A stretch of 29,045 bases of DNA from a virus. Its lineage: Duplodnaviria; Heunggongvirae; Uroviricota; Caudoviricetes. The stretch lies in IMG/VR virus record IMGVR_UViG_2778261464_000005; one strand, written 5' to 3'. Position 1 is the first letter of the stretch, and the number at the start of each line of letters is the position of its first letter. The translations under genes were made by a program, and so were the position numbers. Of the stretch, positions 4,540 to 13,000 are shown piece after piece. A model generated the notes under the pieces. It did no database searches, was not told the DNA's origin, and saw nothing but the letters and a program-made list of their open reading frames with translations.

Positions 4540-5214
4540 TTAGGCTTTGATTTTGTATCTTCTTGGTTTTCCTGAGAAAATCACAGTACCAATTATAGAG
4601 CAATTACCGTTGATCTTAATGTAAGGCTCAGGCCAGTTTGGGTTTAACGCTTTGAGATAACGCTGTGTCCCATCTTCTATCAACCTTTTGAAGGTGGTTT
4701 CACCTGTATCGTGCATCAATGCAATAACGTCGTCACCGTGGCAGGCAGGTACTTCAGGATCGACAAAAATCATGTCTCCCGGGCGGTACTCATCAATCAT
4801 TGAATCACCTATCACCCGCAAGATATAAGTCATTTCCCCACAGGGTACAGGGCAGGGATACGTTTCTGCTGTGCTCAAATCAACCTCAGAATATCCAACT
4901 TCTTTCCATGCTCCGGCCTGTACCCATGATATGACAGGGACTAATGTGATTTGTTTATTAGTGATTGAAACATCAGGTTTTTTTGTGATGTTCGTTGTCT
5001 GGTGTTCTTGATCGAGCCATCCGACAGGCAGGTCGAAACATTTTTCGATGTGTCGTGCCATGCTGTCACCGATATTTTTAGTAGCACCATCTCCCATAAA
5101 CCTGCTGGTTTGGGTTGGCTCGCGATCAATCATAGTGGCAAAGGAAGAATTCCCGCCAACACCATCTCTCAGTTTTCTGGCGTTAGACCGCCGGATGTCA
5201 TGGATTGTTTTCAT
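4540..5214 (-). CDS. cI: CI-type prophage repressor (N-terminal HTH + C-terminal S24 LexA-like autopeptidase)
   Basis: 224 aa. The C-terminal segment VIGDSMIDEYRPGDMIFVDPE...FKRLIEDG...LKALNPNWP matches the S24 peptidase motif of lambda CI/LexA. Divergent from the Cro-like gene across an operator-bearing intergenic region. Confidence 0.85.
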   Translation of the reverse strand: MKTIHDIRRSNARKLRDGVGGNSSFATMIDREPTQTSRFMGDGATKNIGDSMARHIEKCFDLPVGWLDQEHQTTNITKKPDVSITNKQITLVPVISWVQAGAWKEVGYSEVDLSTAETYPCPVPCGEMTYILRVIGDSMIDEYRPGDMIFVDPEVPACHGDDVIALMHDTGETTFKRLIEDGTQRYLKALNPNWPEPYIKINGNCSIIGTVIFSGKPRRYKIKA

Positions 5215-6461: not shown

Positions 6462-7392
6462 ATTAACCGGCTATGTATGGGATGGTTGCGCTGCGTCAGG
6501 CATGAAATTATCCAGCGTGGCAATTATGGCCCGCCTGGCTGATTTCAGTAATGACGAAGGTGTGTGCTGGCCATCAATTGAAACCATTGCCCGTCAGATT
6601 GGCGCGGGGATGAGTACCGTCAGAACGGCTATCGCACGGCTGGAAGCAGAAGGCTGGTTAACGCGTAAGGCGCGTCGCCAGGGTAACCGCAATGCGTCGA
6701 ATGTTTATCAGCTTAACGTTGCGAAGCTTCAGGCAGCGGCATTTTCTCAACTGTCAGATTCTGACCCGTCAAAATCTGACGCATCAAAATCTGACCCGTC
6801 AAAATTTGATGCGTCGAAATCTGGCAAAAAAGCGGGTTTTCACCCGTCAGAATCTGGCGGGGATCCGTCAGTAAAATCAAAACATGATCCGTCAGATAAA
6901 AAACCTTCTCGTCCGGACGCTTCGCAACCGGACACGCAGACGGCTGAACAGGATTTTTTAACTCGCCATCCTGATGCGGTTGTATTCAGCCCTAAAAAGC
7001 GCCAGTGGGGGACGCAGGATGATTTGACCTGCGCACAGTGGCTCTGGAAAAAAATCATCGCCCTGTACGAGCAGGCTGCCGAATGTGACGGCGAGGTGGT
7101 TCGTCCCAAAGAACCGAACTGGACAGCCTGGGCAAACGAAATTCGCCTGATGTGTGTACAGGATGGGCGTACTCACAAACAAATCTGCGAGATGTACAGC
7201 CGCGTCAGCCGCGATCCGTTCTGGTGCCGTAACGTGCTCAGCCCGTCGAAGCTGCGGGAAAAATGGGATGAGCTTTCCCTGCGCTTATCGCCGTCCGTCA
7301 GCACGTACACCGAAAAACGCGAGGACCCGTACTTCAAAGCCAGTTACGACAACGTGGACTACAGCCAGATCCCGGCAGGATTCAGAGGGTGA
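6451..7392 (+). CDS. Replication initiation protein (N-terminal HTH; iteron-encoded repeat linker; C-terminal Trp-rich domain)
   Basis: 313 aa. N-terminal LSSVAIMARLADFSNDEGVCWPSIETIARQIGAGMSTVRTAIARLEAEGWL is typical of phage replication-initiator HTH domains. The middle SDPSK/SDASK/SDPSK/FDASK repeats are encoded by the tandem DNA repeats. Position after cII mirrors lambda O. Confidence 0.75.
   Translation: MSTKLTGYVWDGCAASGMKLSSVAIMARLADFSNDEGVCWPSIETIARQIGAGMSTVRTAIARLEAEGWLTRKARRQGNRNASNVYQLNVAKLQAAAFSQLSDSDPSKSDASKSDPSKFDASKSGKKAGFHPSESGGDPSVKSKHDPSDKKPSRPDASQPDTQTAEQDFLTRHPDAVVFSPKKRQWGTQDDLTCAQWLWKKIIALYEQAAECDGEVVRPKEPNWTAWANEIRLMCVQDGRTHKQICEMYSRVSRDPFWCRNVLSPSKLREKWDELSLRLSPSVSTYTEKREDPYFKASYDNVDYSQIPAGFRG
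6755..6900 (+). repeat. Iteron array (probable origin of replication) inside the replication initiator gene
   Basis: Five tandem 15-bp units (TCTGACCCGTCAAAA, TCTGACGCATCAAAA, TCTGACCCGTCAAAA, TTTGATGCGTCGAAA, TCTGGC...) followed by three more CCGTCAG-containing units and an A-rich tract (GATAAAAAACC). Coordinates approximate. Confidence 0.6.
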
Positions 7393-7394
7393 TC

Positions 7395-7883
7395 ATGAGT
7401 CTGTTAAATGACGTTCAGAAATTCATTGAAGCCCATCCGGGGTGTACTTCCGGAGACATTGCGGATGCTTTTGCAGGTTACTCACGGCAGCGCGTTCTGC
7501 AGTCTGCAAGCAAGTTACGTCAGAGTGGGCGTGTGGCTCACCGTTGTGAAGGAGATACACGCAGACATTTCCCGCGCCTGACTGAGAGAGCGCAGGAACC
7601 GGAACCACAACCAGTTCGAGAAACCAGACCTGTGCGCAATTTCTATGTCGGCACTAACGATCCACGGGTGATTTTGTGCCTGACCCGCCAGGCTGAAGAA
7701 CTGGAGTCCAGGGGCTTATACCGTCGTGCTGCAACCGTGTGGATGGCGGCATTCCGTGAAAGCCACTCCCAGCCAGAACGAAACAATTTTCTGGCGCGTC
7801 GTGAGCTGTGTTTACGTAAAAGCAGCAAGCGCGCTGTATCGAGTGATGAGTGGTATCTGTCAGGGAATTACGTGGGGGCGTAA
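7395..7883 (+). CDS. Hypothetical protein, possibly replication-associated (helix-rich N-terminus)
   Basis: ATG 7395 is 3 nt after the replication gene stop, with AGAGGG upstream; 162 aa. Its stop overlaps the next start (TAATG). Confidence 0.5.
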   Translation: MSLLNDVQKFIEAHPGCTSGDIADAFAGYSRQRVLQSASKLRQSGRVAHRCEGDTRRHFPRLTERAQEPEPQPVRETRPVRNFYVGTNDPRVILCLTRQAEELESRGLYRRAATVWMAAFRESHSQPERNNFLARRELCLRKSSKRAVSSDEWYLSGNYVGA

Positions 7884-8209
7884 TGACGACGTTAACTCAA
7901 TGCCAGCAGCAGGTGCTGGATATGCTGATTTCTTATCAGAAAGAGCGTGGCTTTCCGCCAACCAATCAGGAGGTGGCAACCATGCTGGGATACCGTTCAG
8001 TGAATGCAGCGGTAGAGCATCTTCGCGCACTGGAGAAAAAAGGCGTCATCACGATAAAGCGTGGCGTGGCCCGGGGGATAACGCTTCATACCGCGGTGAA
8101 GGACGACGACAGCGAGGCGGTCGGGATTATCCGCGCACTGCTTGCCGGTGAGGAAAACGCAAGGCTGCGTGCAACCCACTGGTTACATGAGAGGGGCCTG
8201 AAAGTATGA
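7883..8209 (+). CDS. LexA N-terminal DNA-binding-domain-like protein without a peptidase domain
   Basis: Internal ATG 7883 overlaps the upstream stop. LTQCQQQVLDMLISYQKERGFPPTNQEVATMLGYRSVNAAVEHLRALEKKGVITIKRGVARGITL is colinear with the LexA winged-helix N-terminus as I recall it. Only ~108 aa, so no S24 domain. Confidence 0.65.
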   Translation: MTTLTQCQQQVLDMLISYQKERGFPPTNQEVATMLGYRSVNAAVEHLRALEKKGVITIKRGVARGITLHTAVKDDDSEAVGIIRALLAGEENARLRATHWLHERGLKV

Positions 8210-8595
8210 AGCTGATCCTGCCTTTTCCGCCCAGCGTGAACACGTACTGGCGACACCCCAACAAAGGGGCGTTTGCTGGTAAGAGCCTGATAAGCGCGGC
8301 GGGGCGAAAATTCCAGAGCGCAGCGTGCGCAGCAATAGTTGAGCAGTTACGTCGTCTGCCGAAACCAACGTCGGCACCTGCTTCAGTGGAGATCGTGTTG
8401 TTTCCTCCGGATAACCGGATCCGCGATCTGGACAACTATAACAAGGCGCTGTTTGACGCCCTGACCCACGCGGGTGTGTGGGAAGACGACAGCCAAGTGA
8501 AAAGAATGTTGGTGGAGTGGGGACCGGTTATCCCGGAAGGGAAGGTCGAGATCACTATCAGTAAGTACGAGAAACCGGCGGGTGCAGCCGCCTGA
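8206..8595 (+). CDS. rusA: RusA-family Holliday junction resolvase
   Basis: 129 aa; PFPPSVNTYWRH...RDLDNYNKALFDALTHAGVWEDDSQV matches E. coli RusA motifs. Typical nin-region position. Confidence 0.85.
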   Translation: MKLILPFPPSVNTYWRHPNKGAFAGKSLISAAGRKFQSAACAAIVEQLRRLPKPTSAPASVEIVLFPPDNRIRDLDNYNKALFDALTHAGVWEDDSQVKRMLVEWGPVIPEGKVEITISKYEKPAGAAA

Positions 8596-8614
8596 TTAAG
8601 AGGAGAAACGAAGT

Positions 8615-9412
8615 ATGAATAATCTGATGGTCATTGATGGTATTGAAGTTCGTCGTGATGCTTATGGGCGTTACAGCCTGAACGATCTGCACAGGGCTGC
8701 CGGTTCTCTGGATAAGCATAAGCCTGCATTCTGGCTCCGCAATGAGCAAACTGAACGTTTAATAAGCGAGTTGCAGATTTGCAACTCGGTCAATATAGAG
8801 CCAGTTAACGTTATTCGTGGCGGAAATAACCAGGAGACGTATGTCTGCAAAGAACTGGTGTATGCCTATGCAATGTGGATCAGCCCGTCATTCCATCTGA
8901 AGGTGATCCGTACTTTCGATATGGTAACCAGCGCACCGGAAAAATTATCCGGACAGGCTGCTGACAAGATGCAGGCTGGTGTGATTCTGCTGGACTTTAT
9001 GCGCCGGGAATTAAACCTGTCTAACTCTTCAGTGCTTGGTGCCTGTCAGAAACTCCAGGAGGCTGTTGGCTTACCGAATCTGGCACCGCGCTATGCCATT
9101 GATGCTCCTGCTGATGCACTCGATGGCTCAAGCCGCCCTACGCTATCATTGAGTGCACTGCTGAAGCAGTATGGTATCCGCCTTACGGCTAATCAGGCAT
9201 ATCACCAGATGGTGAAGCTGGGGATCGTCGAACAGCGCGAACGATACAGCCGTACCGCGATTAACAACATCAAAAAATTCTGGTCGCTGACAGCGAAAGG
9301 CTGCATGTTCGGCAAGAACATCACCAGTCCCGCAAATCCGCGCGAGACGCAGCCGCACTTTTTCGAATCCCGATTCCCTGAGCTGTTAAAGCTGCTCGAT
9401 ACCGTTCATTGA
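8615..9412 (+). CDS. KilA-N domain protein (antirepressor-like, or a BstA-like abortive-infection protein)
   Basis: N-terminal ~100 aa (VRRDAYGRYSLNDLHRAAG...PAFWLRNEQTERLISEL) looks like a KilA-N domain; C-terminal ~160 aa is unassigned. Confidence 0.65.
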   Translation: MNNLMVIDGIEVRRDAYGRYSLNDLHRAAGSLDKHKPAFWLRNEQTERLISELQICNSVNIEPVNVIRGGNNQETYVCKELVYAYAMWISPSFHLKVIRTFDMVTSAPEKLSGQAADKMQAGVILLDFMRRELNLSNSSVLGACQKLQEAVGLPNLAPRYAIDAPADALDGSSRPTLSLSALLKQYGIRLTANQAYHQMVKLGIVEQRERYSRTAINNIKKFWSLTAKGCMFGKNITSPANPRETQPHFFESRFPELLKLLDTVH

Positions 9413-9419
9413 GGTTACC

Positions 9420-10088
9420 GTGAGAGCACTACTGACCCCTGAAATTGCCCCGCGTATGGGGATCGTATTGTTCAGACCAGGTTCAGAGCTGATGCCCCTG
9501 TTTATGCAGGGGCGTGTCCTGCTGGAGCCTGAGCCGGAGCATTATTCATCTTTCGCCAGTGGTGCCGTTCCCGCGGCATCACAACCGCTGGCGGATGATC
9601 CTGCCGTTCGGGCCGTGTTCCGTAATGAGGCAGTGATTCGTCGTGCTGGTGGGGTGGAATGTCTTGAAAGCTGGTTACTTCGTGAAAAAGGCTGCCAGTG
9701 GCCTCATTCCGACTGGCACAGCGAGAACATGACCACAATGCGACACGCGCCGGGCGCAATCCGTCTGTGCTGGCACTGTGATAACCAGCTGCGCGATCAG
9801 TTCACGGAACGGCTGGAATCAATGGCAACGGATAACTGTGCCCGGTGGGTGTTATCTGTCGTGCGTCGGGATCTCGGTTTTAATGATAGTCACGTTGTGA
9901 CAATGCCGGAACTGTGCTGGTGGCTGGTTCGTAATGACCTGGCGGATGCCTTACCGGAAAGTGCAGCCCGTAAGGCACTGAGATTACCGAAGCCTGTTGT
10001 GCCGTCTGTCACCCGGGAAAGTGACCTTGTGCCTTCGGTTCCTGCCCCAGCATCATCCAGGATAAAGCGAAAAAGGTGCTGGCGCTGA
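9420..10088 (+). CDS. Hypothetical nin-region protein (possibly the N-terminal part of a split DUF968/YdfU-like gene)
   Basis: GTG 9420 preceded by GAGG; 222 aa. Its last ~60 nt overlap the next ORF, whose frame is open from 10025. Confidence 0.45.
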   Translation: MRALLTPEIAPRMGIVLFRPGSELMPLFMQGRVLLEPEPEHYSSFASGAVPAASQPLADDPAVRAVFRNEAVIRRAGGVECLESWLLREKGCQWPHSDWHSENMTTMRHAPGAIRLCWHCDNQLRDQFTERLESMATDNCARWVLSVVRRDLGFNDSHVVTMPELCWWLVRNDLADALPESAARKALRLPKPVVPSVTRESDLVPSVPAPASSRIKRKRCWR

Positions 10089-10408
10089 AAGTGGATCCGG
10101 AGTCGCCGGAGTCTTTTATGTTACGCCCCAAACGTCGCCGCTGGGTTAATGAAAAGTACACGCGCTGGGTTAAGACGCAGCCGTGCGCATGTTGTGGAAA
10201 GCCTGCTGATGATGCCCACCACCTGATAGGTCACGGTCAGGGTGGAATGGGTACAAAAGCGCATGACCTTTTTGTGTTGCCTTTGTGCAGAAAGCATCAC
10301 GACGAGCTGCATGCGGATACCGTGGTATTTGAAGAGAAGTATGGCTCCCAGTTGGAGCTGATATTTCGTTTTATTGATCGTGCGCTGGCAATTGGCGTGC
10401 TGGCCTGA
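10076..10408 (+). CDS. DUF968-like zinc-binding protein
   Basis: Motif CACCGKPADDAHHLIGHGQGGMGTKAHDLFVLPLCRKHHDELH (Cys/His cluster), which I recall as characteristic of phage DUF968/YdfU proteins. GTG start; the true N-terminus may lie in the upstream ORF. Confidence 0.5.
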   Translation: MLALKVDPESPESFMLRPKRRRWVNEKYTRWVKTQPCACCGKPADDAHHLIGHGQGGMGTKAHDLFVLPLCRKHHDELHADTVVFEEKYGSQLELIFRFIDRALAIGVLA

Positions 10409-10422
10409 TTTGGTGGAGAAAG

Positions 10423-10773
10423 TTGATGCGTGATATGTATGAAGTATTGGACCGCTGGGGAGCATGGGCTGCAGCAGAAAATAGTGGTGTGGACTGGCAG
10501 CCGATAGCGGCTGGTTTCAAGGGACTTTTACCACACGGTAAAAAGTCACGTCTCCAGTGTGATGATGATGAAGGCATCATGATAGATAGTTGTGTGGCTA
10601 GGTTGCGTAAATATAAGCCGGAAGAGTATGAGCTGATAATTGCTCACTTTGTTATCGGTATCTCATTACGCACTATTGCGAAGAAGAGAAAATGCTCTGA
10701 TGGGACTATAAGAAAAAAGTTGCAAGCTGCATTGGGATTTATTGATGCAGTTATATATATAATACATGGGTAA
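10423..10773 (+). CDS. Q: Late-gene antiterminator Q
   Basis: 116 aa; VLDRWGAWAAAENSGVDWQPIAAGFKGLLPHGKKSRLQCDDDEGIMIDSCVARL...CSDGTIRKKL matches the phage antitermination protein Q family. Sits just before the late region. Confidence 0.8.
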   Translation: MMRDMYEVLDRWGAWAAAENSGVDWQPIAAGFKGLLPHGKKSRLQCDDDEGIMIDSCVARLRKYKPEEYELIIAHFVIGISLRTIAKKRKCSDGTIRKKLQAALGFIDAVIYIIHG

Positions 10774-10780
10774 TTTATTA

Positions 10781-10799
10781 GACGGCCATATTGGCCGTC
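10781..10799. terminator. Perfect hairpin (GACGGCCA-TAT-TGGCCGTC) between convergent Q and the minus-strand cassette; possible bidirectional terminator
   Basis: 8-bp perfect stem read directly; overlaps the stop codon of the 10798..11976 gene and lies 8 nt after the Q stop. No strong U-run on either side. Confidence 0.4.
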
Positions 10800-11976
10800 A
10801 GCTAAATAAATATGTAATAGCATAAGGCGTAAGTAAAAAGTAGAATCTAAATGTAAGATATAAGCCACATAAAACTATAATTCCTAATGAGGCAAAAACA
10901 ACTTTCTGAACAAGCAATCTTGTGGTTAAACTATCAAATGTATCCTTTATATCTTCGTAAATAGCCTTGAAGTTATATTCTGCTTGTTGTTTTTTATGAT
11001 TTAACTCATCATTTATTGCTGTTAAAGTTTGCCATTGATTAAATAGAACAAATAGAATCATAATAGTGAAGAACAATGCACCCAACACTACAGCTGTGTT
11101 TATTAATGCTTGACTATCCCAACCATTAGCCTGCTTCATTTGAGTCGCAACGATAATTGTTGCGACGGGGATACCTAATATCTGATTTTGTATGTCACTG
11201 AATACTTTATGTATTTTCCCCATCTCTTCTATTTTGGCTACTCGTAACTGATCCAGTATTTTCTCGTAAGAAAAACCAGAAACGAATACTTTGTATCCTT
11301 TTTGATAACTTTCATAAAGTTGTCCTAAATCCCTTAACATGAAGGAAAAAGAGGTTTCTTTAGTTTTAGATTCACATGATGATTTTATACTACTTGCTAA
11401 AATAGTAAGTTTTTGATCTTTATGCGTATCTTCTGCAAAGTTTGCGATCAAATTATGAATCAGATCTCCATTAACATTCATAAGATCATCGCTAGAATAA
11501 TTTACTGGAATTTTTAGTACGTTGGATTCGACGAATACCAATTCAAAATTTGTTTCATCTAAATAAGCAGAACAATCTTTGAATAAAGTAATTAAGCTCA
11601 AAACATCTCTGTACTTGGATATAATAGCAGGCGACTTTTTATCCCTGTTGTGATAATTAAGTTCGATTATAAAGAAGTTACTGGCTTCCTTTATCCTATT
11701 TTTAGGATTTTTTAAATACTCATTAAAAGAGAAATGTAGCTGCCCCAATCGTAATTTGGGGGGGGTTATATGTAAGGTTATAGTTTGGCCTAACTCAATG
11801 TTGCCAGATTCAAGGGTGATGCCAAAATCATGGGGATTCTCTGTGATATCGTTGATGATGTCACAGAGCTCCTCGTTTGAAAGAATGAGTGATGCTTCAG
11901 ATAGGGTACCTGCAAATGTAGCGGCCTTGTAAATAGTCACTAAGTCTTTGAAGGTTCTCTGATTGTTACTGCTCAT
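10798..11976 (-). CDS. Hypothetical protein with ~280-aa soluble N-terminal domain and two C-terminal transmembrane helices (candidate membrane effector)
   Basis: ATG 11976 preceded by AGGTGA; starts 7 nt after the upstream gene stop (operon). Hydrophobic helices ALINTAVVLGALFFTIMILFVLF and VVFASLGIIVLCGLYLTFRFYFLL. AT-rich, no recognisable enzymatic motif. Confidence 0.7.
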   Translation of the reverse strand: MSSNNQRTFKDLVTIYKAATFAGTLSEASLILSNEELCDIINDITENPHDFGITLESGNIELGQTITLHITPPKLRLGQLHFSFNEYLKNPKNRIKEASNFFIIELNYHNRDKKSPAIISKYRDVLSLITLFKDCSAYLDETNFELVFVESNVLKIPVNYSSDDLMNVNGDLIHNLIANFAEDTHKDQKLTILASSIKSSCESKTKETSFSFMLRDLGQLYESYQKGYKVFVSGFSYEKILDQLRVAKIEEMGKIHKVFSDIQNQILGIPVATIIVATQMKQANGWDSQALINTAVVLGALFFTIMILFVLFNQWQTLTAINDELNHKKQQAEYNFKAIYEDIKDTFDSLTTRLLVQKVVFASLGIIVLCGLYLTFRFYFLLTPYAITYLFS

Positions 11977-13000
11977 CCTCTTCACCTAATTCTGATAAAA
12001 TCTCTGATCTTAGCGTATCCGGAATCTCGGTAAGTATCAATTTATCGTTTTCTGAATCATAAAGAACGCTGCCATCATGCAAGGCCGCACGCTCGAATTT
12101 CAGAGACCAATGTTTGGACTTTCCTTTGAAACTAACAAGCCCACGTATAACGTTGCCATCAGGCACGAACCCATCAGAGAACTCCAGATCGTCATTGGTT
12201 AACTTTTCAACTAACAACTCAGGAGCAGTTGGCCATATCTCGTTTGCAAAAATTTGAGTGTCGAAAGTTTCACCAGAACGATTTAAATTTTTTAATTTTT
12301 CATGAGCCTTATTTAGGAACTCTTCACGTGCCTCTGGTTCAAAACCTCTTTCAGTAGCAAATTCTAAAAGTGCATTCCGTAATTTTGTTGTTTCTTGTTT
12401 GGCAATTAGAATATCGTTGCAACCTAAAAACTTTTTGAAATAACCTGCTACTGAATTTTGCCCCTTTAGAAAGCTAATATATCTCTCTTTGCCATTCTGG
12501 CGCCCAGTTAAGTCAATTCGTCCCGCTACTCGAAGTTTAGCAATGTCTAGATATTCACTTTCTTGAATTTCAAAATCGTGGACTGAAGAGCCAACTGCTG
12601 ATGTTAGGATTGCAACCATCAAATAATGATTTCCATTTACCTCATTATGGGCAATTATTACATAACCACCAGTAGACATTGATTCATCATCGGCTCTGGC
12701 TTTTAAATGATTGATCATTCGGATACTAGTATCATAAAAACTATGTGTTTTATTTACGAAATAATCATCAACGATATTACCCATAGGGTAACTATCGCGG
12801 TCATCTTCAAATTTCCCATATCCTTTACCTGCTCTCCCAGAGTACCTTTCAGTAAGTGCGTTAGAGAGGTCTTTTGATGCTTGCTGAACAGGTTTTTCTG
12901 AAGGACAAGGAATAATGGTGGCTAACCCCTGTTGTTCCTTGTTCATAATGTGAACAATAAACTTATGAGTGATATTAGTGGGGGTCGCTGATGCAGTCAT
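11966..13000 (-). CDS. Divergent NdpA/YejK-family (NA37) nucleoid-associated protein homologue
   Basis: 344 aa, about the size of YejK (~335 aa). Colinear blocks with E. coli YejK as I recall it: [20 protein letters not shown] vs [41 protein letters not shown] vs [40 protein letters not shown] vs [25 protein letters not shown]. AT-rich. Confidence 0.7.
   Translation of the reverse strand: [344 protein letters not shown]

Follow-up and report, generated by a model that had tools for sequence, protein, structure and literature searches.

What does a KilA-N protein do when a prophage encodes it in its early operon, and why does one segment of its gene differ so sharply between otherwise near-identical phages? 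The question is raised by a gene at positions 8615..9412 (plus strand) of a 29,045-nucleotide (nt) phage sequence (Caudoviricetes; IMG/VR record IMGVR_UViG_2778261464_000005), the whole of which we call the window. The gene is a complete open reading frame (ORF) of 265 amino acids (aa), comprising a KilA-N head and a conserved, unnamed C-terminal domain, and an earlier note had read its product as either an antirepressor or a BstA-like abortive-infection protein. We found that it contains a hypervariable specificity cassette in which a selected, allele-specific palindrome is embedded, an arrangement that appears not to have been described previously; the gene itself is ordinary and has long been annotated. 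Literature searches returned no functional study of the window protein and no report linking KilA-N genes with a palindrome.

A hypervariable cassette in the KilA-N head

The window is an e14/SfV-like prophage. Over the 2.2 kb from rusA to the DUF968 gene, sliding identity to SfV and mEp460 is 95-100%, except at ~8699-8839, where it drops to 33-57%. We refer to this segment (8699..8839, plus strand; gene nt 85-225, aa 29-75), delimited by sliding identity, entropy and alignments, as the hypervariable specificity cassette; the entropy maximum among 102 close homologues lies at aa 31-70. In the AlphaFold model of the protein, the cassette consists of a loop, two helices (37-41 and 44-56), a second loop and a beta hairpin (64-67/74-77). 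We take these helices and the wing to be the winged-helix-type elements by which APSES domains, such as those of Mbp1 and PCG2, read DNA, and the cassette thus presumably encodes the DNA-recognition helices and wing of the KilA-N head.

Judging by these alignments, the cassette is a recombining unit with many unrelated alleles, and its type follows none of the neighbouring modules. The window and SfV are 95% identical across cI-cro, yet carry cassettes A and F, and Escherichia coli AMSHJX01 (L001) has an immunity region different from that of the window and the same cassette A. L001, SfV and mEp460 have a common Q together with cassettes A, F and D, SfV and mEp460 have a common replication gene and different cassettes, and RusA and DUF968 are 95-100% identical across cassette types. 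Linkage of the cassette type to the cI/cro, replication or Q modules was rejected by these comparisons of SfV, mEp460 and L001. Because cassette type varies independently of these three modules, its only co-varying partner is the palindrome that the cassette contains.

A palindrome embedded in the cassette

The palindrome of the window, CGAGTTGCA-GATT-TGCAACTCG, lies at 8767..8788 (no strand) and has 9-bp arms and a 4-nt spacer. It codes for aa 51-58 (SELQICNS), the end of helix 44-56 and the surface loop after it, and occurs once in the 29-kb window. Nearly every allele has a palindrome at the equivalent cassette position, with sequences as different as CAACACCCA-GAATT-TGGGTGTTG in mEp460, ACTACGGGA-GAT-TCCCGTAGT in SfIV, CGCTCCTG-AGATCA-CAGGAGCG in Proteus and Pm34, CGATACAGGAATTCCTGTATCG in Pantoea brenneri, Enterobacter (Franconibacter) pulveris, Acinetobacter and Alcaligenaceae, and TCCAAAGGCGGAATTCCGCCTTTGGA in Thiorhodococcus. 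Many alleles have dyads that are perfect through the centre or have spacers of 0-2 nt (e.g. GGAATTCC and GGAAATCC), and an outer frame, CGA-N6-centre-N6-TCG, is common to many dyads whose inner arms differ. The dyad is also present in KilA-N heads that bear other C-termini.

That these palindromes exceed what the protein sequence would produce by chance was evaluated in 82 genes, drawn from phage records and one GTDB genome scan, with 75 distinct cassette DNAs. Inverted repeats, allowing at most one mismatch and a spacer of at most 8 nt, were compared with codon shuffles. Repeats of at least 8 pairs were present in 89% of the 75 cassettes against 8.1% of the shuffles, and repeats of at least 10 pairs in 64% against 0.5%. 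The 75 cassettes hold 51 distinct palindromes, with at least nine mutually unrelated sequences among them. When codons were shuffled per cluster, 17 of 35 clusters, which are not independent of one another, gave P<=0.01, and in 43 of 55 genes no inverted repeat elsewhere in the gene was better than the cassette palindrome.

Synonymous sites gave a separate view of the arms. Across nine diverged type-A cassettes (E. coli/Shigella, Yersinia phage, Enterobacter, Leclercia, Citrobacter, Kluyvera, Phytobacter and Superficieibacter), third-codon sites were variable at 0 of 6 positions in the arms and at 36 of 39 elsewhere (Fisher p=1e-5). The invariance of the arm sites therefore points to selection on the nucleic acid, and not on the protein alone.

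Other features of the palindromes and cassettes were noted along the way. Many of the palindromes have an A/T-rich centre, which is often the EcoRI site GAATTC or the Dam site AGATCA, and in the G-I-P class, as well as in types A and B, the dyad centre holds an Ile codon (ATT or ATC). The cassette of ST64B sb46 (L011:223-1083) is composed of two loop modules in tandem, each with its own dyad, CCGAGGGCGGAATTCCACCCTCGG and AGTGATACCCAAAATTTGGGTATCGCT; this tandem suggests that cassettes can arise by duplication or fusion. Pseudomonas phage F10 gp36 (L003:4626-5423), in which a Bro-N head precedes a C-terminal domain of the window type, has an inverted repeat with 9-bp arms, CAAACCGGC-AAATC-GCCGGTTTG, at gene nt 155-177, which matches the offset seen in the KilA-N genes (P=0.04 when the whole gene was shuffled). 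Embedded dyads may extend to other heads of the Bro network. None was seen in Roi, APSE P42 and P43, LASTA gp44 or BstA.

An unnamed C-terminal domain of the Bro network

The identification of a KilA-N protein at 8615-9412, which the earlier note had made, was confirmed: the KilA-N profile PF04383 matches aa 7-105 of the intact 265-aa ORF (8633..8929, plus strand) with 87.4 bits against a gathering cutoff of 23.8 (E=7e-25), and this DNA-binding head has the APSES-type fold. PHROG 129, 'transcriptional regulator', covers the entire protein (8e-127), and relatives are labelled 'antirepressor' or 'transcriptional regulator' in database records. The PADLOC model PDC-S22 does not align at full length, just aa 68-104, in the conserved half of KilA-N, being matched (37 of 281 profile positions, E=6.9e-5), and a sequence search of solved structures gave no significant match for the window protein. 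For aa 106-265 we found no covering model in Pfam, NCBIfam or PADLOC, which agrees with the earlier note's view that the C-terminal domain has no assigned family.

This conserved domain (8951..9409, plus strand; aa 113-265) is nevertheless widespread. A HMMER search with aa 106-265 retrieved 811 clusters (50% identity) at E<=1e-3, ranging from phages of Enterobacteria to those of Pseudomonas, Paenibacillus and Ruminococcus. Among 84 diverse full-length members, the N-terminal heads were Phage_pRha in 29, Bro-N in 18, KilA-N in 9, AntA in 7, ORF6N in 5 and P22_AR_N in 1, and the representative search added a Phage_ASH head in one protein (P0121). Apparent fusions of the domain to Dam, DnaB_C and tail-tip J seem to be truncated or chimeric sequences, and we drew no functional conclusions from them. 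Neither BTP1 Rha nor HK022 Roi resembles the domain.

Domain-swapping phage regulators of the Bro-network/KilA-N kind were reportedly described by Iyer, Koonin and Aravind in 2002. The 'Bro network' of domain-swapping phage proteins has since been defined (PMC10111431), and since the C-terminal domain recurs behind several of its heads, we regard it as a member; on sequence grounds it is a Bro-network module that Pfam has not named. The window protein resembles the network in its KilA-N head, in a C-terminal module shuffled among Rha, Bro-N, AntA, ORF6N, P22_AR_N and Ash heads, and in its early-gene location, but its C-terminal module corresponds to no module that has a name (ANT, P22_AR_C, ORF11CD3, ORF6C and others). 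With the fungal APSES transcription factors (Mbp1, Swi4, Bqt4) it has only the head domain in common; those proteins are eukaryotic, with other partners and other C-terminal regions.

The AlphaFold model built on the alignment of 84 sequences was confident (predicted local distance difference test, pLDDT, 88.6); a run with 23 close homologues had left the C-terminal domain unusable (pLDDT 40-75). In the model, the domain begins with a helical hairpin (113-151), followed by a conserved linker with an LAPxYAIDAP...GSSRPT motif. A winged-helix-like unit (176-225; helices 179-185 and 192-202, strands 205-211/219-225) comes next, and then two more strands with a nearly invariant motif and a terminal helix. 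The strongest conservation is in YGKN-x8-RETQPH, at aa 232-248.

Network genes can also be clustered. APSE-2 (L004:4671-7364) has three in a row between DNA polymerase and helicase, namely G (KilA-N head and C-terminal domain of the window type), P43 (Bro-N head) and P42 (Rha head).

Comparison with the BstA and antirepressor families

The either/or reading in the earlier note, antirepressor or BstA-like, stands as far as the KilA-N head and the unnamed C-terminal domain are concerned, and falls on family membership, since profile searches with the C-terminal domain matched neither the ANT/Bro type nor the BstA type. With bstA of BTP1 (NC_042346) as the positive control, the PADLOC BstA model (PDLC02356) matched BTP1 BstA at 1.9e-124 and did not match the window protein at E<=1, and BLASTP of the window protein against BTP1 BstA gave E=0.49. 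The BstA-like C-terminal domain PF26567 is present in all 120 of 120 listed BstA homologues, and in neither the window protein nor the 84 diverse relatives. BstA homologues are typically encoded 3' of the prophage repressor gene and produced in the lysogen (PMC8585504); the KilA-N gene is not at this spot, 3' of the repressor and co-transcribed with cI, but in the early-right operon. From the sequence comparisons, inclusion of the window protein in the BstA family is not supported.

A short motif is nevertheless common to the two proteins, W..YG..R..PH.Y..F, at 9272-9382 of the window (aa 220-256) and aa 212-240 of BTP1 BstA (L002), with marginal statistics. The alignment sets K.FW..T..GL.YGKN-x8-RETQPHWY.S.F against hW..n.l..YG-ER.KHPHvYPdWF of BstA 212-240. 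Comparison of the two C-terminal domains by hhalign gave 29 columns with a score of 26.1, P=0.004 and a probability of 8%; a score as high came up once in 200 column shuffles, and the reversed alignment scored 22.8. We consider this marginal resemblance a lead, and not evidence of homology.

The antirepressor families fared similarly. HK022 Roi (Rha head and ANT, 9.7e-33) served as both the positive control and the seed of an ANT profile. The ANT domain PF03374 was found neither in the window protein at E<=0.1 nor in the 84 relatives at E<=0.01, and hhalign of the C-terminal domain against the Roi-seeded ANT profile, which is shallow (Neff 1.8), gave a probability of 0.6% over 11 columns. Pfam found neither P22_AR_N nor P22_AR_C in the window protein, and P22_AR_C or any other named C-terminal module in 0 of the 84 relatives, one distant relative having a P22_AR_N head. 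By these searches the window protein is not of the ANT type, and its assignment to the ANT/Bro-type antirepressors was not borne out.

Genomic setting

The KilA-N gene is preceded by a ribosome-binding site read from the sequence, AAGAGGAG (8598..8605, plus strand; contains GAGGAG), 9 nt 5' of the ATG. It lies 19 nt from the stop codon of rusA (8206..8595, plus strand; Holliday-junction resolvase, Pfam RusA 6e-15) and 7 nt from the DUF968/YdfU HNH-type gene (9420..10408, plus strand; Pfam match), after which comes the Q antiterminator gene (10423-10773). The order in the window is cI-like repressor, cro-like gene and ymfL, replication protein, PerC-like and LexA-like genes, rusA, KilA-N gene, DUF968/YdfU, Q and lysis genes, and the annotations of E. 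coli AMSHJX01, SfV and mEp460 give an identical order. The cI-like gene (4540-5214, minus strand) is ~3.4 kb away on the opposite strand, and the KilA-N gene sits between rusA and DUF968/Q in the early-right operon. By position it is a delayed-early lytic gene; from this early-operon location, silence in the lysogen is expected, and the gene should be under cI control. In a promoter and terminator scan around the gene, counts were not above those in shuffles.

The same location recurs widely. The triad of rusA, KilA-N gene and DUF968 is present in phages of Vibrio (Pm34), Yersinia (YeP1), Morganella and Salmonella (ST64B), and genes with the C-terminal domain in distant phages (Pseudomonas F10, APSE-2, Klebsiella LASTA, Paenibacillus Pagassa) likewise lie in early operons, 3' of cro-like genes. 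An early-operon location is thus common to E. coli, Shigella, Salmonella, Vibrio, Yersinia, Morganella, Klebsiella, Pseudomonas, APSE and Paenibacillus phages. By megablast, the gene is present in 2293 of 5426 complete E. coli genomes (about 40%), with a maximum of four copies in one genome. Other carriers are SfV (orf44), SfII, SfIV, ST64B (sb46), cdtI, mEp460 and Stx2a and Stx2c phages, and a Shigella flexneri chromosome (L017) is 99% identical to the window at the KilA-N gene.

Several features of the surrounding region are recorded here. The DUF968/YdfU gene, intact in E. coli AMSHJX01 (330 aa), is split in the window by a 1-nt deletion near 10046 (GCCACCAG -> GCC-CCAG) into ORFs 9420-10088 and 10076-10408, and is either a pseudogene or the product of a sequencing error. 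Likeness to SfV, mEp460 and L001 ends at 10420, which therefore marks a module junction directly 3' of DUF968; Q in the window is a 116-aa protein of the Phage_antitermQ type, compared with 250 aa in SfV, mEp460 and L001. Morons or toxin genes are classically found between Q and the lysis genes. In the window this interval holds two overlapping minus-strand genes (10798-13000), one for a 344-aa YejK-like nucleoid-associated protein (NCBIfam YejK 2.9e-48) and one for a 395-aa protein with hydrophobic stretches seen by eye. The pair scored 56 and 70 bits with the NCBIfam anti-phage models DS1_1 and DS1_2 (cutoffs 330 and 315), had no PADLOC match, and may be a divergent two-gene defence cassette. 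Further upstream in the early operon, a PerC-family regulator gene (7389-7883) lies just 5' of a gene for a 119-aa protein (7850-8209) that is related to an annotated 'LexA family transcriptional regulator' and is too short for the LexA cleavage domain. One database protein (P0017) has LexA_DNA_bind fused to KilA-N.

Discussion

We rank first, as a tentative reading, that the palindrome is the putative binding site of the KilA-N protein encoded around it, because the palindrome alone travels with the recognition segment. With similar reserve, we suggest that the window protein, a member of the Bro/KilA-N domain-swapping network, may bind specific DNA sequences early in the lytic cycle. In the mechanism we have in mind, the dyad-symmetric palindrome (~22 bp) would be the cognate site of a dimer of the protein, and recognition module and target would be inherited together as one ~140-bp unit, with the conserved C-terminal domain supplying dimerisation and a common effector contact. 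The protein would then act in cis, binding the DNA of its own phage in the course of the lytic cycle; this is the least certain step and a conjecture. Equally conjectural are the two outcomes we envisage: binding might mark 'self' among co-infecting or co-resident relatives, or might throttle read-through toward DUF968 and Q. In neither case would the protein inactivate cI or guard the lysogen as BstA does.

Several observations weigh against an own-site function. The SfV, L054/L055 and L056 alleles have a degenerate dyad or none. Further copies of the palindrome or its arms in the window are not beyond chance, with no second copy nearby, and near 35 loci the extra arm copies numbered 5 against 4.8 expected; a lone site within a coding region is an unusual operator. 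The co-variation of palindrome and protein could be explained by mere linkage in old cassette lineages, and DNA contact by the cassette elements is presumed by analogy with the APSES proteins Mbp1 and PCG2. Finally, an RNA hairpin is predicted over the palindrome (z = -3.2).

The hairpin raises the alternative that the palindrome acts as an RNA or DNA structure unrelated to binding by the protein, either as an mRNA hairpin (in processing, stability, or the pausing of ribosomes or polymerase before Q) or as a cruciform or recombination substrate, for example for RusA, whose gene is the immediate upstream neighbour in conserved synteny. The predicted fold of 8740-8815 contains the 9-bp hairpin within a longer stem (-19.7 kcal/mol), and pairing is retained in alleles of wholly different sequence, which resembles compensatory change. 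However, perfect dyads with spacers of 0-2 nt are not needed for a hairpin loop, and mismatches show no excess of the G.U-compatible kind (31, against 35 A.C), single mismatches being of mixed kinds. The type-A arms are invariant across genera in sequence, beyond mere pairing, and arms of 8-13 bp are short for cruciform extrusion. We therefore consider a structural role unlikely, and favour a duplex-DNA site for a dimeric protein over an RNA hairpin because the dyads are perfect through the centre, have the CGA...TCG frame, show no G.U preference and are fixed in arm sequence within a type; as judged from the alleles compared, the common frame also fits a family of related dimeric binders. A different account of the palindrome, as the footprint of a nuclease arms race, would make it a present or past cleavage site and the cassette a co-conversion tract around it, with the KilA-N protein possibly targeting the neighbouring HNH (DUF968) nuclease. 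The cassette does reach ~50-70 nt to either side of the palindrome with sharp borders, the DUF968/HNH gene does follow directly in conserved synteny, and heads of the Bro network have been likened to homing endonucleases (PMC10111431). We regard this account as very unlikely, since DUF968 and RusA, near-identical across cassette types, cannot hold the allele specificity. Moreover, DUF968 of the window is frameshifted while the KilA-N gene is intact, and the Pseudomonas, Klebsiella and Paenibacillus relatives of the C-terminal domain have no DUF968 neighbour. The cassette borders are also where protein segments shared by every allele begin, and this by itself would be enough to focus homologous exchange.

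Other alternatives concern what the protein does. It might belong to a phage-borne BstA-like system, blocking the replication of competing phages, with the palindrome as an aba-like self-immunity element that switches the protein off on its own genome. BstA, too, combines a KilA-N-like head with a cognate-specific DNA element in its own gene (PMC8585504), and the KilA-N gene likewise holds an allele-specific DNA element; allelic diversification as extreme and as sharply bordered as this is characteristic of conflict and self-recognition loci, as many as four copies can reside in one E. coli genome, and the last ~40 aa show the marginal resemblance to BstA described above. But the BstA models were negative for the window protein and its 84 relatives, the shared motif has an hhalign probability of only 8% and scores 26.1 against 22.8 for its reversed alignment, and in a repressed early operon a BstA-like guard of the lysogen is not expected. 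In addition, aba lies at the 5' end with terminal direct repeats and is not a central dyad (PMC8585504), whereas the 5' end of the window gene (region 8570-8660) has direct repeats of a trivial 6-7 nt only. Together these points make a BstA-like system improbable. An ordinary antirepressor, inactivating its own cI or the repressor of a co-resident prophage or satellite and so reinforcing or spreading induction, would suit the database labels of the relatives and the occurrence of the same C-terminal domain behind AntA and P22_AR_N heads, which true antirepressors have. HK022 Roi is, moreover, similarly placed, its gene lying in the nin region next to rusA and 5' of Q. Yet ANT and P22_AR_C are absent, the variable segment differs independently of cI type, the KilA-N gene should itself be under cI control, and the C-terminal domain is kept in phages of hosts from Enterobacteria to Ruminococcus, which presumably have unrelated repressors. 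An antirepressor would also leave the palindrome unexplained, and we judge this role quite improbable.

A DNA-binding protein with its site within its own gene, as our preferred reading proposes, has precedents: lambda O with the ori iterons and Spo0J with parS are examples, and lambdoid O genes exchange their specificity region and their sites together. The window gene resembles lambda O/ori and Spo0J (ParB)/parS in having a dyad-symmetric, here putative, site in its own coding sequence; it differs in having one site, with no array, no AT-rich unwinding region and an unrelated fold, and, compared with lambda O, in a cassette that is independent of the phage replication module. A role in replication or partition is not indicated. 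HK022 Roi and P1 KilA (Rha or KilA-N head with ANT/KilA-C) have the same architecture of head and C-terminal module, but the C-terminal domain of the window is not ANT, and roi has no significant inverted repeat.

BstA with aba provides a further precedent for a protein whose DNA element lies in its own gene (PMC8585504). BstA/aba of BTP1 and the window gene are alike in a KilA-N or KilA-N-like N-terminal domain with a second domain of ~150 aa, in a cognate-specific DNA element within the gene, and in being prophage-borne. They differ in that aba is a 63-bp 5' element with direct repeats and the element of the window a central dyad, in the lack of detectable family homology, and in location, the window gene lying in an early lytic operon and bstA 3' of cI (PMC8585504). 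The resemblance of an allele-specific DNA element within a KilA-N gene to bstA/aba is thus conceptual. Extending this analogy, the ~140-bp cassette might encode both the recognition elements and their own dyad target in the same nucleotides, inseparable by recombination, as dozens of orthogonal alleles among lambdoid and other Proteobacteria phages, and might serve lytic self/non-self discrimination, with BstA/aba logic in an early operon; in this full form we think the proposal doubtful.

The observations recast a 'hypothetical regulator' as a putative protein-site pair with many natural orthogonal alleles, and the unnamed C-terminal domain, with its hundreds of clusters, is an addition to the Bro network. 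The gene is found in Shiga-toxin phages and Shigella serotype-converting phages, directly 5' of the late-gene activator Q. If the own-site reading is true, it would offer a naturally occurring set of orthogonal DNA-binding modules, a possible link in mechanism to BstA/aba, and a handle on how co-resident lambdoid prophages distinguish their own DNA from that of their relatives.

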